The position numbers and the translations under genes were made by a program. A stretch of DNA of 57,369 bases, from NCBI GenBank assembly GCA_903858595.1, contig CAIOJL010000004.1:1-57369 (forward strand). The letters run 5' to 3'. A model generated the notes under the pieces. That model was given only the letters and a program-made list of their open reading frames with translations, was not told the origin of the DNA and made no database searches. This stretch comes from an uncultured Spartobacteria bacterium (GTDB lineage: Bacteria; Verrucomicrobiota; Verrucomicrobiia; Chthoniobacterales; UBA6821). Shown one piece after another: positions 24,214-47,938 of the stretch. Position 1 is the stretch's first letter, and every line of letters begins with the position of its first letter.

Positions 24214-27200
24214 CTAAAGTGAGGCCTGCACTGGTGCAGGGGAGATATCGGCGGCCTTGCGATGTTCGTCGTCATCGTCGGAACCGCCATCCCCTCCCCC
24301 GTAGCCCATGATATCAATCGAGAAAACCGAGGGAGTGGCATCATCTTGATTGCCCGAATTGCTCTTATCAGCTGTCTTGTCAGCCGCGCTATTAGCTGCC
24401 GCCGCAGCGGCACTAGCTCCAGCTGGGGCCGAAACAGGAGGTGCTGCCGGTGGAGGGGCCGCGGCTGGGGCTGCAGCTGGAGGAGCTCCCACGATGGCAC
24501 CGGATGCCGCGATATTATCGGCGTTCAGGATCTTAGTGGCCGCCAGATTCAGAGTTCCCGAGGAGCGGATACCCGCATCACCCGCATCAATGACGCCCGA
24601 TGGCGCAACGAGATCGACAGTCCCCACGGCGGCATCTTTGACTGTTGCGAGGACACCGATGCCGCCACCGGTTGCGAGACCGGAGAGATCCGTTTCCACA
24701 TTGCCGCTGGTGGGATTCACCAGCACGCGGGTCGGAGGTGCTGTGGCCACCGTCTTCGCGGAGGATCCTGCGGCGATGTTCCCCTTGTCTGACCACATCA
24801 TGATATCTCCACCGCGAAGTGTGAAGATACGGCCGATTCCTATGGAGACATCGTTGCGGGTGTAGACATCGATCGCGCCGCCATGCTGGGTGACGATACC
24901 CGGAGGAGTCAGCGTGCTGAGGGTCGGTGGGACAATCGAGGCCAGGGAGACCCCTCCTTCCGGGGCAATCATGAAAATCGAGCCTCCATTCTGGGTACGG
25001 ATACTTTGAGTCCTGAGATTGATGTCTCCGGCTCGGGGGGTGGATCCGAACATCTCGGCGATGGCATTCTCTCCAGCTGAGTAGGTTCCGTAGCCGGGAC
25101 TTCCGACCTTATTGTGATCCCTTCCCGCATCACGAAGAACAAGAGAGAACAAGACCAGAGAGAGGCGCGCCTTCTGATCATCCGTGATTAAGGATGACAA
25201 AATCCCGGAGAGAGATCCGGCCGAGGCAAGAGCGGTGGCCAGATCATCATCCCCTCCCTGCAGGACCTGTTTCGATAGTTCCTTATAGTAGTTGGATGCT
25301 TCGGGAAGCGTCTGCACCTTTTGAATCAACCCAGTGAAATTAAGGGAGGAGGCTGCATCGAGGGAGGAAGGGAGATTGACACCAGCCATTGTGATGATGT
25401 CAGCTCCGTTGAAACTCAGGGCCGGATTGCGGGCATTTCCGATACTCGTGATGCCGACGCCCGTTCCATCGGCATTATTGGGGCCGTTGCCGAGATCGAT
25501 CCCGCCACCGGAGACCACCTCCAGGGTTCCGGGGCCGCTAATCTGGATATCCCCGCTACCGGTAATTCTCGCCTTGTATTGGCTGAGTTGCTGGTCGCTG
25601 AATCCAGTCCCCGCGGCTTGGGCAACCCTTTGGTAGAGGGTTTGATCATTATAGGCAATGATCCCGGAGACCGCAGAAATAACGCTGACATCCGAAGGGG
25701 AGAGATTCTGGAGATAAAGTCCCACATCCTCGATAAATCCCCCCGAAGAGATCTGCGCGCGTTTGGGTGAGAAGAGAGTGATGCCGGTGAGATCCCCCGA
25801 TCGGGCCACGATCTGCAGAGGGTTTGGATCGTTTTTGTGAAGGAGACCGGCATCGTGGAGCTGCTGCTGGAATTGCAGACTGGCCGCATCCCCCGAATAG
25901 GATCCCGTCTCCTGGAAGGGAAGGCCGTTGAATGAGGAGACGGGGGCCGACGGCGAAGGCATGCTGGAGGGACTCGCATCGGAGAGGTTGATCGTCGAGG
26001 AGATGTAGAGTCCCGAAGTGCCGATCGAAGGGGAGCCCGCTCCGTCTGTGGAGAGTCCGATCACACTGCCTGCGGCATCGAGAACAATATTGCCTGAAGG
26101 CGACGTCGCCGCGGTATAGCTGCCCTGCAGGAGGATATCCCCACCGAAGCAAACCGCCTGCAGAGAGGCCGGTTGGAGGGCCGTCTGAGAGACCAACGCG
26201 TTGACGCTTCCCGTGTTCAATCGCAGCCACGGCTGATAGAAGGACGACTTGTAATTATCGCTGGGGAGGATCGGACTGACATCCCCCTGATACCAGTTCA
26301 GCAGGATCGGAGAGACCGGATATCCTGCATTGGCGGCATACTGCCGGAGAGTCACGGAACCGCCGAGAGAAGCCACCGAGACTGAGGAAGAAGCGTCGAG
26401 GGTCGAGAAAAAAGAGTTGTAGTTAAGTCCGTTGTTGAGTCCCTCGGGCATCAGGAAGACGTTCGCCGCCGGCCCAAGAAGGACATTCCCAGAGGCGGCA
26501 ACGTCAAACGAGCTCTTGCCGAGGAACAGGGTGGTTGGCAGGGCTGCCCGATCCGTGCTTATTGGGGCACCCGCAATGGCGGCCAGCGAGGGAGTCATGA
26601 AGGTGTCGCGCGAGGGGTTGGTGATAATGGAACCACCCGCCCGGAGACGTCCCTGCCCCCTCTCCACATAATAGACACCGGCATCGAGGTTCTTGCCGGC
26701 ACGGATTGTCATGTCACCTCCTCCTGTTTCCACCAATGTTTGGGATGAGGGGGAAACCGGAACGGAGACTGTCGATCCTTGCGTCACCACATAGTCCGCA
26801 ACGGAGAGATTGTTCGCGGCAGCGAGATCAGCAGGGATCACACCGAATGCATCGGCCACGGTTTGGAGCGTGTCGCCGGAAGCCACCGTGTAGCTATCAC
26901 CGTTGCCGTCGGGAATGCTCAATGTGGCCCCCTCGGAAGGTCTTATCATTCCGATCGTGATCCCGTTCATCGAAGCAAGGGTTGAAAGCGGCACTCCTGA
27001 TTGGCTTGCAACGACTCCCAACGAAGAGTCATTACCAAGGGAGAGGGTTGTTTTTCCAGCCATGCGGGCCTGGGTCGGGATCACGGAGTCGACATTGCAG
27101 ATGATGCCGCCGGCCTTCATCGTGATATTCCCGCCTCCAAGAGCACCGACACCCTCGAAAAAATTGCTGAAATCGACCCACCAGGCGGTGGAGGTGATTT

Positions 27201-30200
27201 CGGTACGGGTGGTGGTCAGGGGCGTGACCCCGTCCGTGTCCAGCAGCATGTTGCCATTGGCATCCAGCTGATACGTCGTGTTTGCCACCGCGACGAATTT
27301 TCCGGTGATCGGATCGACGGCCCCCCTCCGGTAGAGCCAATTGGAGGGAAGTTCCCTCACGGAATCATCGACAACGACGGGGTTTCCGTCTCCATGGGTG
27401 ACGACCGCTCCTGTGGAATCTTTCTGGTAGGTCTTGTGGGCGATATTGCCGCCGACCTCAATGGAGATATTGCCGCCAGCCATCGAGAACTGCGCCTGAT
27501 AGGTCTGATAAATAGGGAGCGGGTTCCCATTGGCATCCATCAGGGGAGACCCGTTGACATCAGAGAGAGGAACGGGATTTCCATCAGCGTCGACCTTGAT
27601 CTGCTGGGCAGCACCGAGGCTGGTAGTTTCGATTCCGTTCATACTTGCAGCGGGCGTGTCAAAGGTTCCTCCCAGATTCTGATCCGGGACAAGGGTGCCG
27701 GCCGTGTAGACCGAGGAAAATTGGTTCCAGAGTTGAAAATCCCCCGAGGCATTGATGGCAATGTCACCGGTTCCGGTGCGGATCACCTGATAGAGTCCCC
27801 TGATCACCTGAGGGGTCAGCGCGTTTGCCCCATTCCCCGGATCATAACCCAGACCGGGGAGACCGAGCGTGACATTGGCAGCGGATCCTGTCGAAACGGC
27901 GCTGGTGTTGGCGGAGGACAGGTCAGTCCCGGCGGTGATGGCATACGACCAGCTTTGGAAGTTCGCGGGCAGCGCCGTGTTATGGCTCAGCAATGTGGCG
28001 GTGTAGTCGCTTGATGAGAATCCGTCGCTCAGACTGGCATTAAGGGCAATGTTTCCGGAGGCTCTCAGGGTCAGGAAGCCGGGCGCACTGTTGGCACCCG
28101 TACGGAACTGCGACAAATCCCAATCCTGCGAGAGCGTGAGATCACCTCCTTGATTAATGATTTCAACACCCGGGGCAAGATTCAGAACAGCTGCGACTGA
28201 GGGATCAAGGTCTCCTGTCAGTCTCGTGAGAATTGTGGCTGCCACGTCTGAGTTCGCACCCGGAGTTCCTAAAAATCCTTGGGCATCCGAGACCACTAGA
28301 GGAATGACAGAGGAAATCTCTGCAGATCCTCCGCCGTCCGGAGTCAGATCATAGAGTTTATAAGCCTCTACCGCGACACTCGAGGCCCCTGTGATCGTAG
28401 AGGAAATCTCGGAAATCTGAACATCGGAGCCATTGGCCAGTTGGGGAGCTCTCAGGTGCAGGGTGCCGCCAAACTGATCGATTCTCTCAGGAAGCGCTTT
28501 CACACCGAGATCCAGTGTGGATCCCGTTCGGAGATCAAGGAGAGCGTCGGGATTGATCACCCCGTTAACCGCCGCACCAGCACTCAGGAAGATCGATCCC
28601 CCCTTGCCCGCGGCATCGTAGGTGTCGCCATGGACGGAGAGAGAGCTTCCATCTTCCAGAATTACGCTTCCCGAAGCCTGCAGGGCGATAGCCCCGCCCG
28701 TCTTTCCGGAGGCATTGATTGATCCCGTGACATCAATAGATCCACCGTCTGCCGTCACCGTGAAGGAATGGGACTTCACGGCGGCATCGACCGCCACATC
28801 CCCAGAGCGAATCCTGAATGATTGGGAGGAGCTGAATCCAGCCGTTGCCAGCACCGGTTCGATGATCGACAAGGAAGAAAGCGATCCGACATCCAGGGTA
28901 AATGATCCTCCGATACCACCCGAGTTCCCTCCCTTGGCATTGATCAGGGCTTCTGAATCCACGGAGAAGGCACCACCGGGCGCACTGACCGAGAGGCTTC
29001 CTGCGGAGGAGGATTTGATGGCCGAAAGAACCAGTGCCGAACCGGCACCGAGAATCACATTGCCGGAACTCGAAACCAGAGTAATCGATCCTGCATCGGA
29101 AGAACGCACGTCACTCAGGAATGTTCCCTGCTTCCCGGAAACTCCGGCAACGGAGAGTCGGGCATTGTCGTTATTCCCGACGGTAAGATCGCCCGAAAGG
29201 GCGGTGGCAGTCAGCGATCCCCCTGGCAGGAGGATCGACGAATCGAGGGAGACCGATGAACCCAGGAGACTGAGTGCTCCTCCAGCCTGTAAGTCCGGAA
29301 CCGAACCGGAAGCGGCTCCGGATGAAGGGGAGACCAAAGAGAACGCACCGGCGGTGCTGAGCACCGTGGAAACTCCTCCCAAGGTCGTGACCAAAGGAGT
29401 GCTGATTTTCAGGTCGCTCGGCAGGCTTCCCGTACCGGCGGAGAAAGTACCTGAAGCGGTGCCGATCACCGAGGAGGATGCCTCCAGGGAAACAGCAGAG
29501 AACTGATCCCATGACATGCCATTTATACCCAGTGAGAGCTTGTCTGCGGAGATCCGGAGCGTCCCATCGGCCGCCGCCGTGACCGCACCCGGACCGGATG
29601 CCTGAACGGACGGATGATCGGAGCCAAGCGGATTCACCATCACGGCGGGGTTATCAAGCAGGATCGATCGGGCCGAGAGGAGAGCCTCATCCCCCGAATG
29701 ATCAAAGCCGCGGATCTCCCCGGCGTGAAGGGTCAGACTCCTCAAGGAGGTAGAACCGACGACTCCAGCCCCATAGAGATCAAGCGAACTATAGCTGGTG
29801 AATGAAAGGGATGTCGCCGAACTGAAACCATTCAACTGAGCGCTGGAGAGAACAAGGGCGTTGGCGGAGGAGGCATCCAGGTCCGCCGCCGTAAGAGTCG
29901 GAGAGGAAAGAAGAGCGATTTGTCCAGCCGTCAGTAAGAGTGAAGCAGCGCTCAGCGTGGTCGTCGGGGAAACCGTTGCGAGGGCACTGGAATCAAGAAT
30001 CACACCCTTGCCCGACAGGAGCGATCCATCCGCAAGGCTCAGGGAGGGAGCGCCGGGATTGCCATTGCCATCGGTGAAGCCTAACTGGGTCGCCAGAGAA
30101 TCGACACCGGCACGCCGAGAGGTGACCGCGCTGTCCGAACTCACACGGAGAAGAAGACCATCCCCTGCAAGGGTGAGCGATTCATCAGGAGCAGCGGATG

Positions 30201-33200
30201 TACCCGCGGCCGTAAGCGAGGCCCCTGATCCCAGAGAGATAAGCGTACCGCCCACGAGGATAATGTCGTTGCCCACAAGTTTCGTGCCATCCTGGATCGT
30301 GACGGAGGGACTGCTGACAGTGATAGGAGTGGTGCCATCGGACTGCACGGCACCGCGGCTTCCTCCGAGAAGAAGACTTCCGAAAGACCACCCCGAAAGC
30401 TGTTTCGCCCCAAGAAGAAGGGCTCCACTCGGATCTCCCGATCCGTCCGCATTGACCACGATCGCCAGAGGTGAGCTGACATCGATCCGCGCCCCCACAC
30501 CCTTCCCTAAACCTGAACCGCTGACGGAACCGGCCAAAGCCATCCCTGCCGAGGCGACAAAGTGGACACTCCCCCCGTCCGCCGGTTTCGGCGAGGCCAC
30601 ACTGGAATTGAAGAAGGTGTCCACCTGCAGAAATCTCTCCTCGTTTTTCCCCGCGAGAACGTAGGGTGAGGAGAGTATGAAGCTGCTTGCCAGCGATGAA
30701 AGTCCCGATGCTCCGTCCATGCCGTTGAAAACGATTCCCGAAAGTAGGATAGATCCGTCGGGATGGGGGACGGGAGATCCCGTAGCACCAGTGCCGGAGG
30801 CGCTGATGAGATAGGCGCCGGGGAGAGTTGCATAGGATACGGGAAGCAGGGTGTAGTCGCCTGCGGCAAGCCCCCCTGCCCCGGGCAGCCTTACCTTCTG
30901 ACCGAATGGGATGGATCCGTCCGAGTAACCGGTCGGTGCATAATCAGCGGTATATCCGGGAACAATCGCGTAACTGTTCGGCAACTTGGTCCAGTAAGGA
31001 CCGATCACCGGAGTGATTCCCGAGGAGGCCTGAACGGCTGACCAGAGACTCCCCCCATAGAGGACCAGATCCCCGGTACGGTAGCTATTCTGAGATGCAT
31101 AGGAAGTTCCGCTTCCCGTCCAGTTGATCGTTCCGCCAAGGCCATAGACCCACTGGGGAGCCTCCAGCGTCCCTCCACCGCTAACATCGACCGAAGAACC
31201 CTTTTCCATGGTGAGTTGAGAAGCCGAGAGGTTGACCGATTTTCCGGGAACTCCCCTGTAGGTGATGTCGAAGCCCGAGGGGTCCAGCCATTTCTGCCCG
31301 TCGGCAGAGGTTCCGTAAGGGAGAGCCATTCCATTGCCCGAGACGGAGATAAGACTCCCAGCCTGAAGCGTGAGGGTGGTGGTGGAGGGGAGACTCAGAT
31401 TGGAGAGAAAGTCCTTAGAACCACCGGTACCACCCAGCGTGATGGAACCCATCGGCGCGAAGAGCGATCCTCCGATGGTGAGGGTGTCGGCATAGAGCCC
31501 GAGGGAAGCTCCCGCGGAGAGGGGCGCTTCGGGCATGCCGGAGCGGATCAGGGTGATATGCCCCAGAGTGCCTCCCGAGGAGAGAGCCTCGCCGGTCGAA
31601 GGATCATAGCCGTAGGCGACCGCCTTGAACGAGGTGCTTCCGGCAGGATAGATCTCCGCGGCTGTCAGCGTAAGATCCCCGGTGACATCCAGGGTTCCAT
31701 CACCACGAATCGCCCCGCCGGGTGCCGAGAGACTCGTGCGGCGGATTCCCTGCAAGGAGAGATTTCCCAGATCGATAAGCCGCGCGTTCTCAACCGTGAG
31801 GCTTCCCGGGACATTGGCTCCATCGGCACCGGCTGATGGAGCACCCAGAAGGGTTTGATCGGAAGTGCCTGGAGGATTGGGCGTGCCGAATTTCTGCCCC
31901 AGGATGACATGGGCGGCCGAAAGAGTGACCGCATTGTCGGCACTCAGAGTTCCTGCCGTGGCAGCCGTTATGGTTCCAGGAACCGAGAGGGAGACGGGCC
32001 CGGAGAAGAAGGTTCCTCCGCTCAACTTCACCGAATCAAAACCTCCTCTGCGGAACGTGGCGAGGGAGACCTCTCCACCGCCATTCAGACTGGGCGCGGC
32101 GATGGCATCGGGAAGAGTCAGCTCGACACCCACTTGGGAGCCCGGGATGGAGGGATCAACGGCAGGAGGAAGAACGCTCCCCGACTGCACGATCATCAGG
32201 GTTAACGGGTTTTCCGCGGAACCGGAGGAGAAGGATACTGTCCCTCCCGCTGCCGTCGTACCGCCGCTGCGCCCCATCAACGTCGCATCGGAGTAGAGTG
32301 CTTTTTTACCAGAGAGAGTGATGGAGCCCCCGGCGCTGTCGATCCGTGAGGAGACGAATCCACTCTGATTCAATCCCAACTGAGCGGGCAGGAAATCGAG
32401 TAAACCCGAGGTGCCGGAGACATCAAGAAGCCCACCCTCTGCGAGAATATTTCCCCCGAGAGAAATACTTCCACCTGGAAGCACTGCACCGAAGCGCGAC
32501 CTCGCGCCCAGAGGATCAACGGTTGTCAGCACGATGCCAGCCGTCGACAAAACAGCCGACGGGGCGAGATCGAGCGTTGCCTGCGGATAGTTGGGAGGCT
32601 GATCATTGGAGGGAAAATCACCGGCAGCCGCTACCTTGATTCCTCCAGCCGGCGCAAAGATTGATCCATCGATCGTCACCGTGTTGCCGAAGAGAGAGAC
32701 AGATCCGCCCACCCCGGAACCAGAGGCCGTCAACTGGGGATCGACGATGATCGAGGCTCCTGAGCCGAGCACCAGATCACCTCTGGCCAGCACCTTGGAA
32801 CCCAAGAGAAGATTATCGTCCACTGTACCGGCCGAGGAGAAGGAGAGTTGTGCCGCGGGCCGCAGGGGGGATGGCAACAAGAAGGGAACAAGTGAAGAGC
32901 GGGATTGATTCAGAATCTGGGAAGCAATCACCGGATGAATCAAGGTTCCCTGATCGATCACCAAGCCCGGACGATAGGCATCATCCCCGGGAAGACCGAC
33001 TCCGGTTCCTGCAAGGGTGAATGAGGAAAATCCTCCCGTGTTGAAGAATGAGGGAAGGATCTCCGTCTCGCCGGTCAGCGCCGTACCCCCGACGCGGATA
33101 GCCGTGGCGGCCAGCGATAGCGATCCCCCACTGATCCCGGGTCCGGAGTATCCCCTTAGAGTCGATCCCAACCGGAGCGTGCCGTCATGGATGTCGGCGA

Positions 33201-36200
33201 GCACCGTCTGGGGTCGATTGCCCCCCGAGGCCTGCGGATCGGCACCTGCCTTGATCGAGATGGTGCCTGCCTGACCGTAGGTCAGCTTGGCAGAGGCAGT
33301 CACCAAGGCCCCTCCCGAGACATCCACCAGCGCACCTTGCTTCAGAAAAGAGTCATGCCCCGCTAACATGATCGAGCCTCCTCCTATCATGATCGGAGCC
33401 AGGGTCGAGGAACCGAGATCGCTGGTGAGAAGGCCCGCCGTGCTGAGGAGAGCACTTGACTCAACACGCAGATTCCCGGAGGTCAACTCGGGAAATCCAA
33501 GGATCGGTGGGGCGCCGGGATTGACGGCCAGAGGAATCAGATCGTAGGGGACGAGGTCGGCCATCAGTGAGATCGATCCTCCGGGAGCCGTGATGCTTCC
33601 TCCGACCTCCACATTGGCCGCCTCCATCGTGACACTGCCGCCCAGCCCTGCATCCAGCTTCACCCCGCGGGGAATCGAAATCGACCCGTCGTGGTTGAGG
33701 ATGTTCACCTTGCCAAATCCTGAATCGGAAAAAAGTCCCTCCGACAGGGTGATCTGTCCCTTGACGGCATCGGGCAACGGTGCGGCATTTCCCGATTCGT
33801 CCAGTGCAAAAGATTGTAGGGCCGTGGAGGCTGAGGCTTTGGCGAAAAGAACTGATGGGGCATATGGTGAGGTGGGCAAAACTAGGGAGGAGTTCACCTT
33901 CACACCCTCAAGACTCAGATTGAACGATGATGGGGCCGGTGGAGCCCCCGATGTTGCCGTGGCTCGGAGTTGACGGAATCCGGTCACCGTGTTGCCAGCA
34001 ATCCCCCCTTTCAGAGCCACCGAGGGAGCCGCAATGGAAAGGGATCCCCCCGATGCTCCCTGGAGAGAAGGAGCCTCATACGAGGAGGGAGCATTCTTCA
34101 GGATTCCGGTGTAGACTTGATCAGGAGTCGCCTTTGAAATATCAACAGCCCGCCCATCGCTCGTCAGCAGCTTTGTGGTGGCGAAACTCCCCCCCGAGTA
34201 CTGAGTCCATCCACCCGAGACATTGACGATCGACCCGGGACTCATCACCACGGCGTCACCAGCCGAGAGGGAGACCGAACCACCCGCCTCGGTGAGCTGA
34301 CCCACCCTCTTCTGGATAAGCCCCACGTAGCCGCCAGCCTTGCCGAGCGGGGTTCCGACCCAGTAAGTGCCGTTGTAGGATCCCGTGTTCCGGATATCGA
34401 TCGTGATGTCCTTGCCACGAACGGGACTGTTTCTTTGCAGGGGACTGTCGGCAAGCTCCGGCCCGCGGAGCTGGAGGGTCAGGAAATTCTGCGCCGAGTC
34501 GACCTGCACATCGGTCGATCCGGAGGCATCGATGACGGCCCCTTGATCCAGATAGATCTGTCCAGCCGTCGGAAGAAGCATTGAGGGGGAATTTCCATTC
34601 GGGAACCACTCCCCCGCAGAAAGAGTGATGCCATTGACCAAGGAAGATCCACTTTCGGAGAGCGCAAGGGGCTTGCCATTGGCATCGAGGGATTCCACGG
34701 CACCGGGTGCCAGAAGAACAGACCCATTCCCCAAATGGATGTTCCTGCCGATGATGTCGACGAGTGAATTGAGGGCTAAGGAGTTACCGATCACCGTGTC
34801 ATCGCTTCCCCACTCGGGAAGAATCCGAAGGACGCTTCTAGAGCCCAGCTCCACAAGGCCCGTCGATCCCTGATAATAGGCGGGGCCGTTCAGCCCATCG
34901 GTCGTGTAGGCGGAATTGATCATGGTTCCGTAACTGGCGACTAGGTCGACCCGGCCGTTGAGGGAGACCGAGGTGGAGCTGTCGAGAACGGCCCCTATGG
35001 AGCGCCCTCCGTTGACAGGGCTCAGGGAATCATCAGGCAACGATCCCTGGATAACGGACTTGCCGGCCATCGTGGCATTGCCCCGGTCAAAGGAGATAAG
35101 ACCGTCGTTAACGGCATTCCCGGCGTCCCCGGCCAAGGGAACCACCGCCCCGGCCTGAACCAAGGGATCCGGATCATCCAGTCTGGCGTCGCGCACCGCA
35201 CCGACCACGACATCCATGCCGCGGAGGCTCGGATCCTTCGAGGCATGGGGATTGAGCGCTACCTGAAGCCCCGCCGCCAGAACGGTCTGTCCCCCGGCGG
35301 TGCTGATGGTGCCATCATTGCGGACATTGGGGCCGACAAGGGCAACAAGACCACCCACACCGGCGGAATTCGGAGGGGAAACAATCGATGCTCCCGTCTC
35401 CACCACCACGTCACCCGGAGTGGCGCTCTGCGGAACCGATCCAAGGGAGGGATCAAAGGAGGGCGTGGGGCCATTCTTTCCGGAGGAGAGCTTCAGCCCG
35501 CTGAAGAGGAACTGGTTGTCCGGATTGTTCGCGATGCCGCGTCCAGTCACCCCGTCTAGGGCGTCCCCCGCCAGGTTTCTATTGATCGGTAGGGTGGAGG
35601 CGACCAGCGTGTGGGTATTCACGGTCGAGCCATTGTGAAAGAGAAGACCATTCTGGTTGAGAATCCAGACCTGCCCTTGCGCGGTGATATTGCCAAAGAT
35701 GTGGGAAGGATCCGTGGCGCTCATCACCTTGTTGAAGGCGATCCAGTTGCCGGGATCACCGTTGTTTCCCTTCTGGCTGAAATTTATCGTGGTTGCAGGA
35801 CCGACATTGAACTTATTCCAGTAGAGATACGCATTCTGCGAGGTCTGCTGGATATTGACGTAGTTGGGATTCGCCGCATTGGCGGCGTTCTGGGATGGAG
35901 TGATCGAGGCCCCGCTCCAGGAAGTGGTCACGGCCGTCCCGTTGACGATTCCGGCACGCTCACCCTTCACGTAGGGCTCGAGCCAACCGGCCTTCAGCCC
36001 GTTATAGACCGCCGTGTCGCCATTCACCGTCTGGCCGTTCGGAAGCACGGATGCCGGATTGGCCTTCGCGGCTTTAGCCGCCTGAGCCTGCAGCTTCGTC
36101 ATTGCAGAAACCACGGCATTCCCCTTGGCGATATCTTGCCGAGCGAGAGCCGCGGTCAGCGCGGCGGAGGCAGCACCGGCGTTGACAAGATTGGGTGCAG

Positions 36201-36495
36201 AACCCTGCCCCCCGGAGCCGCTTGTCGAACCCGCCTTGATCTGGCCCATCGTGATGGCAAGGAGCGGAGGGGACGAGGTCAGGAAGAGCAATGCCGTAAG
36301 CACCGACGCCACAGCCCTGACAGGCCAAGAATGACGGACCACACGGACCCCAAGGAGTTCGGGCAACGGATCAACGGACCCCTGCGGTACAAGCGCATGA
36401 TTTCCGCCTTCCCCACCGTAAAGGTGCGTCCTTTCCTCCCCGACTCCATAAAGGAAACGAAGCACTCGGTGCGTCATCGGGGAAAAGGCGGACAT
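24214..36495 (-). CDS. Giant filamentous haemagglutinin-family exoprotein (TPS domain, beta-helix repeats, C-terminal DUF3739-like domain) with LysM and CBM5/12-like insertions
   Basis: 4093 aa; extended signal region ending PPLLA; TPS-type WNKFNVG...PSHIFGNITAQGQVWILNQNG; many GGSI/VSL repeats; C-terminal GGDIMMWSDKGNIAAG...GGGIG...IDAGDAGIR...PSVFSIDIMGYG. Start may be ATG 36477. Confidence 0.88.
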   Translation of the reverse strand: MSAFSPMTHRVLRFLYGVGEERTHLYGGEGGNHALVPQGSVDPLPELLGVRVVRHSWPVRAVASVLTALLFLTSSPPLLAITMGQIKAGSTSGSGGQGSAPNLVNAGAASAALTAALARQDIAKGNAVVSAMTKLQAQAAKAAKANPASVLPNGQTVNGDTAVYNGLKAGWLEPYVKGERAGIVNGTAVTTSWSGASITPSQNAANAANPNYVNIQQTSQNAYLYWNKFNVGPATTINFSQKGNNGDPGNWIAFNKVMSATDPSHIFGNITAQGQVWILNQNGLLFHNGSTVNTHTLVASTLPINRNLAGDALDGVTGRGIANNPDNQFLFSGLKLSSGKNGPTPSFDPSLGSVPQSATPGDVVVETGASIVSPPNSAGVGGLVALVGPNVRNDGTISTAGGQTVLAAGLQVALNPHASKDPSLRGMDVVVGAVRDARLDDPDPLVQAGAVVPLAGDAGNAVNDGLISFDRGNATMAGKSVIQGSLPDDSLSPVNGGRSIGAVLDSSTSVSLNGRVDLVASYGTMINSAYTTDGLNGPAYYQGSTGLVELGSRSVLRILPEWGSDDTVIGNSLALNSLVDIIGRNIHLGNGSVLLAPGAVESLDANGKPLALSESGSSLVNGITLSAGEWFPNGNSPSMLLPTAGQIYLDQGAVIDASGSTDVQVDSAQNFLTLQLRGPELADSPLQRNSPVRGKDITIDIRNTGSYNGTYWVGTPLGKAGGYVGLIQKRVGQLTEAGGSVSLSAGDAVVMSPGSIVNVSGGWTQYSGGSFATTKLLTSDGRAVDISKATPDQVYTGILKNAPSSYEAPSLQGASGGSLSIAAPSVALKGGIAGNTVTGFRQLRATATSGAPPAPSSFNLSLEGVKVNSSLVLPTSPYAPSVLFAKASASTALQSFALDESGNAAPLPDAVKGQITLSEGLFSDSGFGKVNILNHDGSISIPRGVKLDAGLGGSVTMEAANVEVGGSITAPGGSISLMADLVPYDLIPLAVNPGAPPILGFPELTSGNLRVESSALLSTAGLLTSDLGSSTLAPIMIGGGSIMLAGHDSFLKQGALVDVSGGALVTASAKLTYGQAGTISIKAGADPQASGGNRPQTVLADIHDGTLRLGSTLRGYSGPGISGGSLSLAATAIRVGGTALTGETEILPSFFNTGGFSSFTLAGTGVGLPGDDAYRPGLVIDQGTLIHPVIASQILNQSRSSLVPFLLPSPLRPAAQLSFSSAGTVDDNLLLGSKVLARGDLVLGSGASIIVDPQLTASGSGVGGSVSLFGNTVTIDGSIFAPAGGIKVAAAGDFPSNDQPPNYPQATLDLAPSAVLSTAGIVLTTVDPLGARSRFGAVLPGGSISLGGNILAEGGLLDVSGTSGLLDFLPAQLGLNQSGFVSSRIDSAGGSITLSGKKALYSDATLMGRSGGTTAAGGTVSFSSGSAENPLTLMIVQSGSVLPPAVDPSIPGSQVGVELTLPDAIAAPSLNGGGEVSLATFRRGGFDSVKLSGGTFFSGPVSLSVPGTITAATAGTLSADNAVTLSAAHVILGQKFGTPNPPGTSDQTLLGAPSAGADGANVPGSLTVENARLIDLGNLSLQGIRRTSLSAPGGAIRGDGTLDVTGDLTLTAAEIYPAGSTSFKAVAYGYDPSTGEALSSGGTLGHITLIRSGMPEAPLSAGASLGLYADTLTIGGSLFAPMGSITLGGTGGSKDFLSNLSLPSTTTLTLQAGSLISVSGNGMALPYGTSADGQKWLDPSGFDITYRGVPGKSVNLSASQLTMEKGSSVDVSGGGTLEAPQWVYGLGGTINWTGSGTSYASQNSYRTGDLVLYGGSLWSAVQASSGITPVIGPYWTKLPNSYAIVPGYTADYAPTGYSDGSIPFGQKVRLPGAGGLAAGDYTLLPVSYATLPGAYLISASGTGATGSPVPHPDGSILLSGIVFNGMDGASGLSSLASSFILSSPYVLAGKNEERFLQVDTFFNSSVASPKPADGGSVHFVASAGMALAGSVSGSGLGKGVGARIDVSSPLAIVVNADGSGDPSGALLLGAKQLSGWSFGSLLLGGSRGAVQSDGTTPITVSSPSVTIQDGTKLVGNDIILVGGTLISLGSGASLTAAGTSAAPDESLTLAGDGLLLRVSSDSAVTSRRAGVDSLATQLGFTDGNGNPGAPSLSLADGSLLSGKGVILDSSALATVSPTTTLSAASLLLTAGQIALLSSPTLTAADLDASSANALVLSSAQLNGFSSATSLSFTSYSSLDLYGAGVVGSTSLRSLTLHAGEIRGFDHSGDEALLSARSILLDNPAVMVNPLGSDHPSVQASGPGAVTAAADGTLRISADKLSLGINGMSWDQFSAVSLEASSSVIGTASGTFSAGTGSLPSDLKISTPLVTTLGGVSTVLSTAGAFSLVSPSSGAASGSVPDLQAGGALSLLGSSVSLDSSILLPGGSLTATALSGDLTVGNNDNARLSVAGVSGKQGTFLSDVRSSDAGSITLVSSSGNVILGAGSALVLSAIKSSSAGSLSVSAPGGAFSVDSEALINAKGGNSGGIGGSFTLDVGSLSSLSIIEPVLATAGFSSSQSFRIRSGDVAVDAAVKSHSFTVTADGGSIDVTGSINASGKTGGAIALQASGSVILEDGSSLSVHGDTYDAAGKGGSIFLSAGAAVNGVINPDALLDLRTGSTLDLGVKALPERIDQFGGTLHLRAPQLANGSDVQISEISSTITGASSVAVEAYKLYDLTPDGGGSAEISSVIPLVVSDAQGFLGTPGANSDVAATILTRLTGDLDPSVAAVLNLAPGVEIINQGGDLTLSQDWDLSQFRTGANSAPGFLTLRASGNIALNASLSDGFSSSDYTATLLSHNTALPANFQSWSYAITAGTDLSSANTSAVSTGSAANVTLGLPGLGYDPGNGANALTPQVIRGLYQVIRTGTGDIAINASGDFQLWNQFSSVYTAGTLVPDQNLGGTFDTPAASMNGIETTSLGAAQQIKVDADGNPVPLSDVNGSPLMDANGNPLPIYQTYQAQFSMAGGNISIEVGGNIAHKTYQKDSTGAVVTHGDGNPVVVDDSVRELPSNWLYRRGAVDPITGKFVAVANTTYQLDANGNMLLDTDGVTPLTTTRTEITSTAWWVDFSNFFEGVGALGGGNITMKAGGIICNVDSVIPTQARMAGKTTLSLGNDSSLGVVASQSGVPLSTLASMNGITIGMIRPSEGATLSIPDGNGDSYTVASGDTLQTVADAFGVIPADLAAANNLSVADYVVTQGSTVSVPVSPSSQTLVETGGGDMTIRAGKNLDAGVYYVERGQGRLRAGGSIITNPSRDTFMTPSLAAIAGAPISTDRAALPTTLFLGKSSFDVAASGNVLLGPAANVFLMPEGLNNGLNYNSFFSTLDASSSVSVASLGGSVTLRQYAANAGYPVSPILLNWYQGDVSPILPSDNYKSSFYQPWLRLNTGSVNALVSQTALQPASLQAVCFGGDILLQGSYTAATSPSGNIVLDAAGSVIGLSTDGAGSPSIGTSGLYISSTINLSDASPSSMPSPSAPVSSFNGLPFQETGSYSGDAASLQFQQQLHDAGLLHKNDPNPLQIVARSGDLTGITLFSPKRAQISSGGFIEDVGLYLQNLSPSDVSVISAVSGIIAYNDQTLYQRVAQAAGTGFSDQQLSQYKARITGSGDIQISGPGTLEVVSGGGIDLGNGPNNADGTGVGITSIGNARNPALSFNGADIITMAGVNLPSSLDAASSLNFTGLIQKVQTLPEASNYYKELSKQVLQGGDDDLATALASAGSLSGILSSLITDDQKARLSLVLFSLVLRDAGRDHNKVGSPGYGTYSAGENAIAEMFGSTPRAGDINLRTQSIRTQNGGSIFMIAPEGGVSLASIVPPTLSTLTPPGIVTQHGGAIDVYTRNDVSIGIGRIFTLRGGDIMMWSDKGNIAAGSSAKTVATAPPTRVLVNPTSGNVETDLSGLATGGGIGVLATVKDAAVGTVDLVAPSGVIDAGDAGIRSSGTLNLAATKILNADNIAASGAIVGAPPAAAPAAAPPPAAPPVSAPAGASAAAAAANSAADKTADKSNSGNQDDATPSVFSIDIMGYGGGDGGSDDDDEHRKAADISPAPVQASL

Positions 36496-36533
36496 CAGGA
36501 TTCTACACTAAAGCACAACGAGTCGATTCCTGC

Positions 36534-36549
36534 GTTACGTTTTTGACAC
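36534..36549. promoter_or_regulatory. Imperfect GTnAC-N6-GTnAC site upstream of the exoprotein gene
   Basis: GTTAC-GTTTTT-GACAC (one mismatch); a minus-strand TAGAAT -10-like hexamer lies at 36500-36505. Confidence 0.35.
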
Positions 36550-36597
36550 AATAGGTAAAATTCTCCCTCCCCTCCGCAACGTTATGAGGGGGGATCT

Positions 36598-37521
36598 CTA
36601 CTGAGCAAGGGGAGGATAGGCGGCCTTGATGGCGGCCGCCTCCTTGTCACCATGGCTGATCTGATCGGGCGTCATCAGGGCCGTGATCTCATAGTACATG
36701 CCGATAACCGGGACGTAGCCGGCATCCTTGGCAAGCTTGATCCAGGGGTAGCTTGCGGACGGCCCCTTGAGCACCATCATCTTGTGGGCATAGAGGAACT
36801 GGGCGGGGGAATTGCCCAGTCTAGCTGCTGTTGCAAGCCACTCATCCGACTTAGCCGGATCCTTGGGGAACCCCGTGCCGTTCTTGTAGAGATCGCTGAG
36901 TCGCAGGGCGGCCCCGTCGTGACCGGCCTGGGCGGCGCGCAGGAGAAGCTCTGCGGCCCGCTTGGGATCCTTCGTCATGCCGTTTTCCCCGGAGAGAGAG
37001 TCATCGGCCACGGAGACCAGAGCCGGTACATAGCCCAGATCAGCGGAACGTTGCATCATCTTCGAGGCTAAGCTCGGGTCCTTCGCCGTCCCGACCCCCT
37101 GACGGAGGAGCAGGGAGCAGGAAAAGAGGGCCTTGGGATCCCCGGCATCCGCACCAGAGCGGATCCAGCGGTATCCCTCGGCGGGATCGGCCGGCACACC
37201 CGCCCCCGCGAGTAGCATCACCCCGAGATTCTGCATGGCCCGGGGATCTCCGGCACGAGCCGCACGGAAGTAGAGTTCCCGAGCCTTCACAGGATCCGGT
37301 GTGTCTCCGATTCCCTGCTGAAGATTGACCGCCTTGTGGAAGAGCCGTGCGGCCTCCTTCCTGGTCAACTTCTCAGGAGAAGGCTCGGGAGTGGGCGTGG
37401 GCGAAGGAAGGATTGCAGGGGGCTGCTCGGCATGACTTCTTGCGACCGGAAGAGCCAGGGAGAGAAGAAGGGCCCCGGTGAGGCCGCGCAGCGGATGTGA
37501 TGATGCGGATAGCAGATTCAT
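36598..37521 (-). CDS. Secreted Sel1-like repeat protein
   Basis: Signal peptide (LLLSLALPVARSHA), Pro-rich linker, about 6 repeats of A...LG..L..G.GV..D...A..W...AA..G. Confidence 0.88.
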   Translation of the reverse strand: MNLLSASSHPLRGLTGALLLSLALPVARSHAEQPPAILPSPTPTPEPSPEKLTRKEAARLFHKAVNLQQGIGDTPDPVKARELYFRAARAGDPRAMQNLGVMLLAGAGVPADPAEGYRWIRSGADAGDPKALFSCSLLLRQGVGTAKDPSLASKMMQRSADLGYVPALVSVADDSLSGENGMTKDPKRAAELLLRAAQAGHDGAALRLSDLYKNGTGFPKDPAKSDEWLATAARLGNSPAQFLYAHKMMVLKGPSASYPWIKLAKDAGYVPVIGMYYEITALMTPDQISHGDKEAAAIKAAYPPLAQ

Positions 37522-37594
37522 GATCGTGGTAAAAGGAGATGAATGGGTGTGGATCATAGCAGATTCTTGGACAGATGGGAGAAGGGAATGTTCG

Positions 37595-37610
37595 GTGACA
37601 ATTTCGTAAC
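37595..37610. promoter_or_regulatory. PHO-box-like 11-bp-period repeat upstream of the Sel1 gene
   Basis: GTGAC-AATTTC-GTAAC; on the coding strand TTGTTAC-GAAA-TTGTCAC. Confidence 0.55.
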
Positions 37611-37629
37611 AATCATGACCTCTCTTACT

Positions 37630-38391
37630 TTATTGTCTGACACGGATCAGACGCCCCTCGCGCTGCAAGACCCGCATCTCCAGCGCATCCTCACCGTAGC
37701 GTGCTCGGAAGGCATCATCAGCCGGACTGAGCGGCGTCGGCTCGGGTGTTGGCGCGGGAGGAGGGCCCTTGAGAGACTGGAGGGCCTCATCTCCATACTG
37801 CTGGCGGAAGATATCATCGGCCTGTTGGGCCGACTGCTTCCAGAGATCGGCATAGCCGGGTGCGTAGGGACTCAGGCCGCTGGACTGGATACGTGCAGTA
37901 AAATCCGCGGTGGTCTGATCGAGAAGCTGGAGCTGCTCCTCGGTGAGTGAGGAACGGGCTTCAGGCTGGGCATAGATGGCAGGGACATAGACTGGGACAG
38001 GCGTCGGTTCGGGTTCCACCACCTCAAAGACCTCTTCCGGTTGCTTGGGCTCTTCCCGGACGACAGTCGTTGCGGGTGAGACAGGGGATGCAGGAGAGGA
38101 GGAAGTTGTCAGAGTTAACGCGGATTGGGTCGAAGGAGTGGGGGGCACCGCTGTCGCTTGGGAACCCTGCGGAGTGGCAGTCCTGGAGGAGCTGCTTCCC
38201 CCATCCAAGGCCAAGGTCGATCCGACAGAGCTCCAGGAGCAAAAGAGCAGGAACGTAACCAAGAGCACGCCACCCCCCAGGGCGATTAGTAGAAATGGGT
38301 GGATGAATGCCGAAGCGTCTAAGCGACGCCTAAACGTGGGAGCATGAGCAGGAGCATAGTAATGTGGCTTGCGGTGAGTCATCACGGGCAA
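37630..38391 (-). CDS. Membrane-anchored hypothetical protein with S/T/P-rich linker and duplicated ADDxFRxxYG motif
   Basis: Hydrophobic stretch at about aa 29-52; low-complexity linker; QADDIFRQQYGDEAL and PADDAFRARYGEDAL. Confidence 0.7.
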   Translation of the reverse strand: MPVMTHRKPHYYAPAHAPTFRRRLDASAFIHPFLLIALGGGVLLVTFLLFCSWSSVGSTLALDGGSSSSRTATPQGSQATAVPPTPSTQSALTLTTSSSPASPVSPATTVVREEPKQPEEVFEVVEPEPTPVPVYVPAIYAQPEARSSLTEEQLQLLDQTTADFTARIQSSGLSPYAPGYADLWKQSAQQADDIFRQQYGDEALQSLKGPPPAPTPEPTPLSPADDAFRARYGEDALEMRVLQREGRLIRVRQ

Positions 38392-38448
38392 CTGGGCATG
38401 AAGGGTTGTTTATTTGTCGAGTAAGAACTCTTTCACTATTTGCCTGAG

Positions 38449-38484
38449 AAAACAAACAGGCCGACGGTTTCCCGCCGGCCTGTT
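38449..38484 (-). terminator. Intrinsic terminator after the PstS-like gene
   Basis: Minus strand AACAGGCCGGCGG-GAAA-CCGTCGGCCTGTT followed by TGTTTT. Confidence 0.8.
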
Positions 38485-38558
38485 GTTAAGTTTTCTTTCC
38501 ACTCCCTCCCGGAGTTGCACTCCAGAAGGTTTCGGCAAGAAGGGAGAGAGGATCTCTC

Positions 38559-40214
38559 TTAGAAGCCAGCTCCGGCGCCGGCAGTTGCCTGCTTGGCGGT
38601 GGTGGAGTAGCTGGGCAGGTTGGTCAGCGTCACGCTGTTGGTCCAGTTCTTCGTGATGCTACCACCGTCAACCGTGCGGGCGACATTGTTGGTAACGTCG
38701 CTGAGCAGGAGAGTCCCCTTGGCCTTGGCCTGAAGGGCAGGTGTACTGAGAGACTGGATCGAAGTGGCAATCTGCGAAGCTAACGACTGAGCGGTCGCAG
38801 AGGCCTCATTGTTCACCAGGATGTGCTCGACGCTCCAGAAGGGATAGGCTCCCGACTTGATCGCTCCGGTACTCGGATAGACACCCTCGTAGGAGAGGAT
38901 GTTGGCACTCTTGCCAGTGGCATCGGCGAGACCGGCGTAGCCGATCGCGATGGCATTGCCGGGAGAGTTTGCCGAGGTGACTGCAGCAATCGTGGTGCAG
39001 AGATCACCACCCGATCCGTATCCATTGTGTCCGGTGGCGCAGAGCTTGCCCAAGGTGACCTCGGCGGGCCAGTTCGTGATCACCAGAGTGCTGGCGCTGT
39101 TGGAGGCATAGAGCGTTCCATCCGACTGGGTGTAGGTGGAGTACTTAATACCGCTGTTGGTGCCGAGGATCAGGTACTGCTTGATGCCGGTGTTGACACC
39201 GTTGGCAACCGAGGTGCTGGTAACTGTGCTGCCAAGACCAAGCATCGAGAAGGTGATCAGACGAGTGCCGGAATCAATGCTGCGACCGACAGCATAGACG
39301 AAGCGGTTCGTGTCATCAAGGCTGCCAGTGAACTGGGCGGCATTGACCTTGCCGAGCTTGAAGAGGGCGGCGGCCTGAGCCTTGGTGATGTTGGCGATGG
39401 CGCCGTTGGTGCCGGCGAAGTTCGCGCCTTGGGTCAAGGCCGAATTTGCGCTGGAAACGAATCCAAATCCGACAATGCCGACAGGGATGTCGTTCGTGAT
39501 CGCGGAATACAGGTTGGAAGCCACAAGTACCGAACGGCTGGCCGGAGCCTTAATGCCCAGGTACGTGGCATTGGTCGTCTGTGCGGGATCGAGGTTGTTC
39601 GTAGCAAAGACAGCAACCGTCTTGCCGGCACCGAAGGCCGAGGAGACCTGATAGGTGTCGGAGAAGGCGATGGTGCCAACAGCGGCCACCTTGCTGATCG
39701 TGCCGGTAGCAACGCCATTGGAGAGCGTGAAGCTCTGAGAAGGATCCCAGAAGCTAATCAGGTTCGGAGTGGCTGCGATGGCGTCGGTAATGCTGTTGGT
39801 GGTCTTCAGCGTGTTGGTCCATTTGCCAGCAACACCCGTCCAGGTTCCACCGACAACCAGATTCGTGGGCTTCACCGAGTTGGTGTAGGTGGTGATATTG
39901 GTGCTGACGACGTTGTAAGGGCTCTTGTAGCTCACGTTCTGGGGACCGGCGACGGTCTGGATGCCAGCCTCGGAACCATTCCAGCAAGCAACAACCTTAT
40001 CGCCATCCACGGTCGTCCAGACCACGTTGCCGGCACTGCCGAGTGTCGCATTGTCCCTGGCGTTCTGGGTTCCACCAGCGGTCGTGATGGTGGAATCAAT
40101 CTGGCTGTTCGCAGCGCTACGGAAAGCCGTAGAACCGGTGATATAGATCGTCTCGGCGGAGGCCGAACCGATCGCAAGAGCTGCAAGAGCAGCTGCTAGG
40201 ATGTTTTTTTTCAT
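38559..40214 (-). CDS. Secreted protein with PstS/DING-like periplasmic-binding fold
   Basis: Sec signal (ASA/E); IYITGSTAF, GSEAGI, AFSD, GRSIDSGTR (R..xSGT phosphate-binding motif), IGYAG, IKSGAYPFW; codons mostly end in C, suggesting high expression. Confidence 0.7.
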   Translation of the reverse strand: MKKNILAAALAALAIGSASAETIYITGSTAFRSAANSQIDSTITTAGGTQNARDNATLGSAGNVVWTTVDGDKVVACWNGSEAGIQTVAGPQNVSYKSPYNVVSTNITTYTNSVKPTNLVVGGTWTGVAGKWTNTLKTTNSITDAIAATPNLISFWDPSQSFTLSNGVATGTISKVAAVGTIAFSDTYQVSSAFGAGKTVAVFATNNLDPAQTTNATYLGIKAPASRSVLVASNLYSAITNDIPVGIVGFGFVSSANSALTQGANFAGTNGAIANITKAQAAALFKLGKVNAAQFTGSLDDTNRFVYAVGRSIDSGTRLITFSMLGLGSTVTSTSVANGVNTGIKQYLILGTNSGIKYSTYTQSDGTLYASNSASTLVITNWPAEVTLGKLCATGHNGYGSGGDLCTTIAAVTSANSPGNAIAIGYAGLADATGKSANILSYEGVYPSTGAIKSGAYPFWSVEHILVNNEASATAQSLASQIATSIQSLSTPALQAKAKGTLLLSDVTNNVARTVDGGSITKNWTNSVTLTNLPSYSTTAKQATAGAGAGF

Positions 40215-40520
40215 GTTGTTTTGTTTTTGTTTTTGGACTGACAGTTTTGTCTGACTAACGACTGGCTGACTGACGGCGCCGGAAGATCTGAGGGCTTTTT
40301 AGTGTTGGTTGGGCTCTCGTTTCGTCCGGGTTGATTGTTTGCTGCGCGGTGAAGCTGGCTGATTCGGTGTCGTGTTTTTGTTTGCCGCTGTTGCTATTTC
40401 GGGACTTGGCAGGCTGCGGATACCGATGAAATCAGGGTTTTTGGGTTGATGGTGAAAGTTTTTTGTTTCTGAACTGCCGTGAATATGCCCGAGACCCCGC
40501 GGATCGTCATGAGCTTTAAT

Positions 40521-40536
40521 GTCACAAGTTTGTAAC
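40521..40536. promoter_or_regulatory. PHO-box-like 11-bp-period repeat in the divergent intergenic region
   Basis: GTCAC-AAGTTT-GTAAC; 15/19 identical to the site at 37595-37613. Confidence 0.55.
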
Positions 40537-40781
40537 ATTGCCTTGGTTGCCATGACCTACTACTCCCAGTCATTTTCCCCCGCCTCCGCAATGAGCGATT
40601 CCCAGCCCATGAACCAATGCCAAAGGACCGCCCGGAGAGAACATCGTGCGGGAATATCTCTCAATGCGTTCTCTTGCCACCCCTTAAAAAAACCGTTACT
40701 TCTTACTCTCGTTCTGATACTTACAATATATTCGGATATGGCTTCGGTGGTCATGCCATCCCCCACAGAACAACATCAACC

Positions 40782-47754: not shown

Positions 47755-47777
47755 AGGGATGAAGGGAATCAAAGGGA
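47749..47777. repeat. Dispersed REP-like repeat, copy 1
   Basis: TTTCACAGGGATGAAGGGAATCAAAGGGA, 26/29 identical to the reverse complement of 53617-53645. Confidence 0.75.
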
Positions 47778-47938
47778 CATTCAAAAAAACTTCCTCCCTT
47801 CTGCACGAACAGCCTAAACCCCTAAAACAGGAACAGCCCCGCAACTTTTCGGTTGCAGGCTGCCTCTGGGTGGATTTCCCCCACGGGAAATCCCATGGGG
47901 GTCTCGGGGAGGAAATCCTGAATTAGTTTAGTGACGAC

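Follow-up and report, generated by a model that had tools for sequence, protein, structure and literature searches.

A probable Pho-controlled, PdtAB-type two-partner secretion system with a PstS-fold protein and its predicted membrane anchor in a Chthoniobacterales-like verrucomicrobium

Pseudomonas aeruginosa carries a two-partner secretion (TPS) locus that responds to phosphate limitation. PA0690 is tpsA (pdtA), PA0692 is tpsB, PA0693 is exbB2, PA0694 is exbD2, PA0695 is tonB, and PA0696 encodes a putative porin. PA0697 and PA0698 are listed as unknown, PA0699 encodes a PpiC-type isomerase, and lapA (PA0688) lies alongside. The genes PA0690 to PA0699 are reported to be induced via sigma-VreI and PhoB at low phosphate (PMC2729926, PMC7035377, PMC5422565). 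The review passages that cover PdtA and PdtB list their function as unknown (PMC5422565). Here we describe a comparable locus on contig C4 (CAIOJL010000004.1) of an uncultured Spartobacteria bacterium. The contig, 57,369 bases long, is the whole window analyzed. It contains a cluster of four genes encoding a PstS-fold protein (P0004), a membrane-anchored protein (P0003), an exported Sel1-repeat protein (P0002) and a giant TpsA-type exoprotein (P0001). This locus is probably one half of a phosphate (Pho)-controlled, PdtAB-type TPS system of a Chthoniobacterales-like verrucomicrobium.

Two further groups of proteins are close to the present system. LapA and LapB are DING-like proteins of the PstS COG that are reported to be secreted at low phosphate (PMC2225411, PMC2242829), and PstS-rich appendages are described under the same condition (PMC2242829). 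Haemophilus HxuABC combines TPS with a TonB-dependent transporter for haem-hemopexin, and as outlined in a review (PMC5422565) it sets an example of nutrient capture by a secreted TpsA in the service of uptake energised by TonB. The literature search found no description of the present verrucomicrobial system.

The genome comprises 2.35 Mb in 242 contigs and is 95.95% complete. The open reading frame (ORF) list places P0004, P0003, P0002 and P0001 (n = 4) in the same orientation on the minus strand (Table 1), and export signals were judged by eye on the translations. On one side the cluster is flanked by housekeeping genes for succinyl-CoA ligase, citrate synthase and phosphoglucose isomerase (PGI), and on the other by genes for a WecG-family fusion, a phospholipase D (PLD)-like protein and chromate transporters. 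The remaining gene content of the contig is ordinary. The ORFs, the translations and the flanking families thus bear out the initial annotation, which had seen four co-oriented, exported or anchored gene products amid housekeeping genes. Its remark that the window holds no TpsB/FhaC, TonB/ExbBD or PstCAB gene agrees with the scans: TpsB, ExbB and PstB were absent from the window, TonB was absent from the 37 window ORFs scanned with Pfam, and none of the eight MotA_ExbB matches of the genome is on C4. The ShlB match is on contig C222, and pstB and phoU are on C144. The canonical pstSCAB-phoU operon sits on C144, and P0004 is thus not encoded with pstCAB.

The partner genes of the giant exoprotein were found on C222. 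The sole ShlB match in the genome, at C222:13010-14782, is the tpsB gene (ShlB 74.1 bits, POTRA_2 44.3 bits). It is followed by exbB, which encodes a DUF2341-LamG-ExbB fusion, by exbD and tonB, and by genes for a Porin_5 protein of 849 residues, a hypothetical protein of 226 residues and a PpiC-type, SurA-like isomerase. The order tpsB-exbB-exbD-tonB-porin-hypothetical-PpiC is the same as in the printed gene list of P. aeruginosa. The ShlB/FhaC, DUF2341/ExbB and TonB partners that the initial annotation had proposed to look for in the genome are therefore all on C222. Its analogy with PdtA and LapA was right and understated, because the accessory parts are the same and are only placed elsewhere in the genome; the gene order on C222 and the fold of P0004 carry the likeness further. 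The expectation of different accessory parts did not hold, as TpsB, ExbB, ExbD, TonB, the porin and PpiC are all encoded on C222 in the Pseudomonas order.

A single DUF3739/TPS-domain gene, that of P0001, and a single ShlB match were found in the genome, so that the pairing is one-to-one. Export of P0001 would presumably depend on TpsB. In the relatives L175, L139 and G007:C47 the tpsA and tpsB genes are adjacent. In L175 the 3′ end of the giant gene is followed in one run by tpsB-exbB-exbD-tonB-porin, and in L139 the giant gene is followed by tpsB. Some points weigh against the reading as a whole. The tpsA gene is on C4 and tpsB on C222, which gives no shared operon here, with the two on separate contigs and 4% of the genome unseen; the likeness of P0001 to PdtA and of the Porin_5 protein to PA0696 is one of family and gene order, not of comparison with Pseudomonas sequences; and induction, secretion and ligand binding are all read from sequence. 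Even so, the four window genes and the C222 run very likely form one system. A second giant gene at the end of C222 was considered and dropped, as the open frame upstream of tpsB is unlike P0001 and L175 and has no Pfam family.

The 226-residue protein encoded after the Porin_5 gene (C222, L002, nt 6631-7311, minus strand) likewise matches no Pfam family. Many verrucomicrobial metagenome proteins share 70-86% identity with it, which makes it far more conserved than P0004, and it bears coiled-coil-type names in the sources. A search with this protein for a link to PA0697 gave only verrucomicrobial relatives and no Pseudomonas names in the best 120 of 369 matches.

Gene neighborhoods of related genomes were used to examine whether the cluster is kept together. 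Within the genus, G006 has a gene for a periplasmic-binding protein (PBP) of the P0004 type, then the anchor, Sel1 and giant genes, and a second PBP gene. G015 has two PBP genes followed by the anchor, Sel1 and giant genes, and G001 has the PBP and anchor genes up to the contig end. A P0004-like gene lies upstream of the giant gene on the same strand in eight genomes of the genus, and adjoins tpsB in G005, G013 and G010. In G005:C2 the order PBP-giant-giant-PBP-tpsB occurs in a single stretch. Across the phylum, a scan with a DUF3739 alignment was anchored on the 3′ ends of giant genes. From 253 confirmed loci the best 80, which came without exception from verrucomicrobial or unnamed metagenomic records, were surveyed with family profiles; Pseudomonas PdtA was not reached among them. 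A P0004-family ORF was found in 30 of the 80 loci, a P0003-family ORF in 27 and both in 21. Wherever both families occur, in all 21 loci, the two ORFs share a strand and the P0004-type one is the immediate 5′ neighbor of the P0003-type one. When the survey is limited to the 54 loci for which 5 kb or more is available downstream, the numbers become 28, 25 and 20. Sel1 comes after the giant gene in 18 of the 80 loci. These counts are lower bounds, because the upstream side of the loci is hidden inside the giant gene. The four families cluster with giant TpsA genes across the Verrucomicrobia, and the co-location that the initial annotation had set up as its own test is thereby found in related genomes, in the clusters of the genus as well as in the phylum counts.

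Table 1. Features of the cluster and Pho-box-like sites. Positions are those of the window unless a contig is named; aa, amino acids; nt, nucleotides.
Feature	Position	Strand	Description
P0004	38559..40214	-	551-aa PstS-fold protein, signal peptide, beta-rich insertions
P0003	37630..38391	-	253 aa, single-pass membrane-anchored; flexible linker and helical periplasmic domain (predicted)
P0002	36598..37557	-	319 aa, exported Sel1-repeat protein
P0001	24214..36495	-	4093-aa TpsA-type exoprotein
TPS (NPXG-type) secretion domain	35590..35823	-	P0001 aa 225-302; TIGR01901, E 4.4e-16, 58.6 bits against a cut-off of 29.1
LysM domain	26785..26892	-	P0001 aa 3202-3237; PF01476, E 3.8e-8, 33.6 bits against a cut-off of 20.9
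DUF3739 C-terminal domain	24481..24813	-	P0001 aa 3895-4005; PF12545, E 8.5e-30; same range in a second search
Intrinsic-terminator-like hairpin	38455..38484	-	directly 3′ of P0004; 13-pair stem, 9 G-C pairs, then T run
Pho-box-like site before P0004	40518..40539	-	about 305 nt upstream of start codon; 25.6 and 23.1 bits on the two strands
Pho-box-like site between P0003 and Sel1 gene	37592..37613	-	exact core; 25.5 bits in gene orientation
Weaker Pho-box-like site before giant gene	36531..36552	-	7/8 core bases; 14.9 bits
Site before tpsB	C222:14861-14882		32.4 bits
Site before metallophosphoesterase gene			25.7 bits
Site before OlsB/OlsA-like gene pair			22.7 bits
Site before Nramp gene			20.9 bits
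Site before OprB-type porin gene			20.6 bits
Site before Na/Pi cotransporter gene			17.4 bits
Site before ppk1 (polyphosphate kinase)			16.6 bits
Site before PHO4-type transporter gene			9.3 bits, exact core

P0001 has a hydrophobic stretch, seen by eye, ahead of the TPS domain, and ends with DUF3739 followed by a Pro/Ala-rich acidic tail. More than 1500 relatives of about 4000 residues were found, and the named ones are called 'filamentous hemagglutinin family protein'; Chthoniobacter flavus is among the sources of named members. DUF3739 clusters in the protein atlas are commonest in Pseudomonadota, which serves as a lead only. Like Bordetella filamentous hemagglutinin (FHA)/FhaC and other type Vb systems, P0001 has an N-terminal TPS domain on a very long exoprotein, and its partner is an Omp85-type TpsB with POTRA_2 and a ShlB barrel. 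Unlike FHA/FhaC, it has the C-terminal DUF3739, an internal LysM, an unlinked tpsB, and a coupling to ExbBD-TonB, a porin and the PstS-fold module. A single LysM domain suggests that the P0001 fiber may bind glycans. P0002 matches PF08238 Sel1 with 95.9 bits against a cut-off of 30.7, has four repeats, and starts with a hydrophobic leader as judged by eye.

The PstS-like nature ascribed to P0004 by the initial annotation is supported at the level of fold. The protein has a classic signal peptide, ending ...GSASA by eye. Its AlphaFold2 model (predicted local distance difference test, pLDDT, 81.9) gave 14 Foldseek rows against the PDB with E < 0.01, all of them PstS-type phosphate-binding proteins, with target TM-scores up to 0.74. 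The family profile matches 4ecf with E 6.2e-8; PstS chains are thus also reached by sequence. In 61 sequences of the family T29, F31, D186, R311, S315, G316 and T317 are invariant, and the RxxDSGT stretch of P0004 (R311, S315, G316, T317) aligns to the matching RxxGSGT stretch of solved PstS chains. Like PstS and DING/LapA, P0004 therefore has the type II periplasmic-binding fold with solved PstS proteins as its best matches. Unlike them, it has 551 residues, including about 200 in beta-rich insertions, scores below the curated cut-offs, is encoded away from pstCAB, diverges fast, and has an anchored partner. Orthologues within the genus are at most 42% identical, compared with 67-93% for the canonical PstS, and P0004 is thus fast-evolving. 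Paralogues are frequent. All named ones among the 107 relatives are 'hypothetical', and P0004 itself has no Pfam match, with PF12849 recorded for 1 of the 107.

Whether P0004 binds phosphate is a closer question. Against it, P0004 scores 30.4 bits with the curated PstS model TIGR02136, below the cut-off of 206.6, and a profile comparison of its family with the PstS of the same genome was not significant (probability 0.18%). The match of T29/F31, S81 and D186 to other ligand positions of PstS is only presumptive, being based on the ligand residues of the E. coli protein. With the model and the RxxDSGT stretch on the other side, phosphate binding by P0004 is slightly favored.

P0004 looks like its own transcription unit, because a strong terminator-like hairpin lies 3′ of it. 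Rfam found nothing in its leader; the sole match on the window is a tRNA at 4444-4532. Sigma-70-like promoter matches were no better than in shuffles (6 against a mean of 5.6). In one lake-water metatranscriptome library, X1, short RNA contigs lie on P0004 and on its leader, at 40244-40362. The word share of X1 is 0.08, and it holds only short contigs at a depth of 2.5-3.7. Such libraries can contain DNA, and the expression evidence for P0004 is therefore a weak hint; the lack of cover on P0003, Sel1 and the start of the giant gene carries no weight at such depth. The leader contigs are weakly compatible with a long P0004 leader that would begin near the box at 40518-40539.

P0003 had been called an orphan, a label that no longer fits, as 65 distant representatives were found that share about residues 125-208. 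The protein itself gave no domain match, 64 members of the family have no credible Pfam family, and Foldseek with the model gave no match at E ≤ 0.001 and no solved look-alike. The AlphaFold2 model has one hydrophobic helix at residues 30-57, a low-confidence segment at 58-135 and a confident helical domain at 138-244. The complex prediction that the initial annotation had suggested for pairs of these proteins supports docking of P0004 on P0003. The interface score ipSAE was 0.70 (0.70, 0.76 and 0.67 in the runs), and the best of three controls scored 0.00. A score of 0.70 was reached by 58 of 80 solved complexes and by 2 of 110 mismatched pairs, counts that are only a rough calibration because our own alignments were used in the complex prediction. 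The runs agree in at least 89% of contacts, with a partner pLDDT of at least 72. The predicted interface contains the family-invariant G200 of P0003 and the near-invariant Q189, G328, R513, D516 and G517 of P0004. On the strength of these models, the helical domain of P0003 is reasonably likely to dock on P0004.

The predicted docking and the invariable adjacency of the two genes suggest a tethered binding protein, not a free exoprotein. The most durable alternative is that P0004 is freely secreted or forms a surface layer, accompanying the giant fiber outside the cell in the manner of LapA and DING proteins, and that P0003 is only a transient export or assembly factor. The low identity of P0004 within the genus relative to canonical PstS is what an exposed protein would show, and its paralogues are common. 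LapA and DING proteins are themselves secreted, the PstS-rich appendages reported at low phosphate (PMC2242829) would fit, and its own transcript with a strong terminator would suit abundant production. The P0003 gene, for its part, follows that terminator and lacks a Pho box, which counts against the preferred reading as a whole. Against free secretion, none of the 37 window ORFs scanned is a type II secretion gene, conserved residues of both families make up the predicted contact with P0003 and its inner-membrane anchor protein domain, and the two genes are adjacent in 21 of the 21 loci with both. A free scavenger or surface layer for P0004 is not indicated, and we consider this alternative doubtful. 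P0004 and P0003 appear to be a previously undescribed pair of a PstS-fold protein and its predicted membrane anchor.

The promoter regions of the cluster share a candidate regulatory site. The initial annotation had placed a GTNAC-N6-GTNAC site before three of the genes. Two exact matches occur in the window, at 37595-37610 before the Sel1 gene and at 40521-40536 before P0004; the third, before the giant gene at 36534-36549, retains 7 of the 8 fixed bases, and the gene of the anchored protein has no site. Shuffles of the window contain a mean of 0.26 matches, and at least two in 3 of 100. In G006 and G001 the orthologues of P0004 are likewise preceded by this core, at a distance of 319-335 nt. 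Read in the direction of the gene, the site consists of two TGTnAC boxes with a 5-nt A/T-rich spacer, and G006 has three boxes with an 11-nt period. The pattern fits tandem binding by a regulator of the OmpR/PhoB type. The Pseudomonas PhoB box is described as two (T)GTCA(T/C)-like boxes with a 5-nt gap and an 11-nt repeat period (PMC4513871). The site in the window has the same architecture.

The site is also present at the second locus, 82 nt upstream of tpsB on C222. Among the tpsB loci of relatives the exact core was found in 17 of 29, upstream of the gene in 16 and, by estimate, some 50-110 nt away from its start. When a matrix was built solely from the 16 unique sites of the relatives' tpsB, it gave 14 matches of at least 20 bits in the genome, against 1, 0 and 0 in three shuffles. 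Twenty distinct sites score at least 14 bits. Fifteen of them lie outside any long open frame, and of the other five, the Sel1 and C20 sites lie only in frames other than those of the real genes. Several of the genes preceded by a site (Table 1) are concerned with phosphate or phosphorus. In the genus all 4 loci of the Na/Pi cotransporter gene and 8 of the 12 loci of the olsB-like gene keep the site upstream, and before pstS it reaches at least 17 bits in 3 of 22 loci (G015, G016 and G002) and at least 8 bits in 7 of 22. Contig C97 encodes a response regulator whose best match is PhoB (232.7 bits), beside a kinase with best matches to PnpS and PhoR. The conservation of the site at tpsB, and its presence before the Na/Pi, PHO4, ppk1, olsBA-like and metallophosphoesterase genes, support control by phosphate. 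The phosphate-type signal proposed earlier for the cluster gains support, as the site resembles a Pho box in regulon content, conservation and box architecture. The regulon content makes phosphate control of the cluster likely, and the sites would give Chthoniobacterales-like Verrucomicrobia their first candidate Pho box and regulon.

Several observations weigh against phosphate as the signal. The loose pattern has 28 matches in 2.35 Mb, compared with about 32 expected from base composition; there is no genome-wide enrichment, and the motif is interpreted by where it lies and how well it is kept rather than by its frequency. The PhoB-like and PhoR-like proteins of C97 fall below the NCBIfam equivalog cut-offs, and a second OmpR-type regulator is encoded on C119. 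The genome's own pstS promoter has a degenerate site scoring below 2, and no site scoring at least 3 was found at the phoB-like operon or at the PF00245 alkaline phosphatase gene. Strong sites also precede genes without an obvious phosphate link, such as those for Nramp, an RRM protein divergent from prephenate dehydrogenase, and a secreted protein of unnamed kind, and two further strong sites, on C89 and C3, are unclear. These facts would suit a TPS adhesin of the same kind whose TGTnAC boxes serve a regulator of a different cue, for instance stress on the envelope or its lipids, some other nutrient, or contact with a surface, with the phosphate genes as part of a broader envelope-remodelling set. 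The OprB porin gene and the genes of further secreted proteins among the targets, the regulator on C119, and a binding of the boxes by the C97 regulator that we only infer would all be accommodated. Such a set explains less well the sites before two phosphate transporter genes, ppk1 and the olsBA-like, metallophosphoesterase and PstS-fold genes, or their retention at the Na/Pi and olsB-like genes and at pstS of several congeners. The box architecture equals that of the PhoB box (PMC4513871), and the counterpart locus in Pseudomonas is reported to be induced at low phosphate. Another signal is therefore improbable. PhoD was not found in the genome, and PhoX gave only a weak match, on C153.

The last alternative, that the four genes are neighbors by chance or by envelope location only and that the giant protein is a generic adhesin or contact-dependent toxin with no tie to the PstS-fold protein, can draw on the unlinked tpsA and tpsB of the assembly, on the inverted Sel1 gene of G006 and G015 and on the varying gene order between lineages, but it is very improbable, as it is disfavored by the synteny of the four families with giant TpsA genes across the phylum despite rearrangement, by the common conserved site in the promoters, and by the end of P0001 in DUF3739 and the Pro/Ala-rich acidic tail, with no toxin domain found in it by Pfam or NCBIfam.

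The Sel1 gene, co-oriented with its neighbors in the window, is on the opposite strand in G006 and G015 (36598-37557 in the window, compared with L016:11274-12215 and L019:14232-15191). The divergent Sel1/giant promoter region of G006 holds a 7/8 box, and in the window Pho-box-like sites flank the Sel1 gene. An invertible Sel1 switch was considered and dropped. The gene is flanked by no inverted repeat other than the two Pho-box-like sites, whose complementarity of 75% over 16 nt is no better than that of many chance pairs. We read the inversion as a fixed rearrangement.

In the preferred reading, the PdtAB/ExbBD-TonB/porin low-phosphate system has a verrucomicrobial counterpart that is split over two loci, with a probable Pho box, a new PstS-fold/anchor module and Sel1. 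As in P. aeruginosa, a giant TpsA is present, a PstS/DING-like gene adjoins the TpsA gene, and control is linked, here presumably, to phosphate starvation. Unlike P. aeruginosa, the system occupies two loci, control is apparently direct through Pho-box-like sites, ExbB carries DUF2341 and LamG, P0003 and Sel1 come in addition, and a counterpart of PA0691 was not seen. VreA/VreI/VreR and Hxc genes were absent from the 37 window ORFs scanned and from the C222 genes, the two places to which this search was confined. Compared with the HxuABC precedent, which handles haem through a classical TonB-dependent transporter, the present system has a Porin_5 barrel and a putative nutrient link.

A sequence of steps can be proposed for this system. 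Upon phosphate limitation, the PhoR/PhoB-like pair of C97 would bind the tandem TGTnAC boxes and switch on three units, namely P0004 as its own transcript with a long leader, Sel1 together with the giant gene, and the tpsB-exbBD-tonB-porin operon. The Na/Pi and PHO4 transporters would be under the control of this site too, as would ppk1 and the ornithine-lipid genes. The giant protein would exit via TpsB and form a surface fiber, whose LysM module may hold N-acetylglucosamine (GlcNAc) polymers. P0004 would bind phosphate or a phosphorylated ligand and dock on the helical domain of P0003, the linker of which, roughly 80 residues long, would hold it at the inner membrane. For uptake or release, either the Porin_5 barrel or TpsB would draw its energy from TonB-ExbBD.

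That the PdtAB gene order recurs in a distant phylum of free-living bacteria, together with direct Pho-box-like sites, suggests phosphorus physiology rather than virulence as the core task of such systems. The new parts supplied here are a fast-evolving PstS-fold family and a membrane-anchored partner predicted to bind it. Chthoniobacterales-like Verrucomicrobia are common in lakes with phosphorus-limited growth. As a long shot, the giant DUF3739 fiber, TpsB, the TonB-ExbBD-energised Porin_5 barrel and the tethered PstS-fold protein could be one ancient machine of Pseudomonadota and Verrucomicrobiota that harvests phosphorus from extracellular polymers or particles, with P0004 and P0003 as its phosphate-capturing or phosphate-reporting arm. 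If true, this would give PdtA a function, and could also explain the PstS/DING-rich appendages at low phosphate.

Other observations were made near the site or its target genes. At C153:4931 an exact core separates a DUF3800 gene from a divergent series of plus-strand ORFs, whose last member (C153:5300-7177) is cut by the contig end and has the weak PhoX match (E 2e-5). At C221:19242 and C78:5909 two SecY genes, one cut by a contig end, have near-identical upstream sequences with a GTTAC-N6-GTAAC match; the duplication may reflect strain heterogeneity or a duplicated assembly region. At C232:7305-9033 several receiver-domain genes, including a response regulator-SpoIIE phosphatase fusion, closely precede the Na/Pi cotransporter gene with its box.

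Elsewhere in the window, the plus-strand ORF at 5813-7537 joins a low-molecular-weight phosphotyrosine phosphatase domain (residues 4-140) to a full serine hydroxymethyltransferase, which is either an unusual fusion or the product of a wrong start codon. The plus-strand gene at 40617-42635, divergent from P0004, encodes a 672-residue protein with WecG/TagA glycosyltransferase and CoA_binding_3 domains, and the equivalent place in G006 has no such gene. The minus-strand gene at 45649-47844 encodes a 731-residue protein with an F5/8 type C (discoidin-like) carbohydrate-binding domain and adjoins the ribonucleotide reductase genes.

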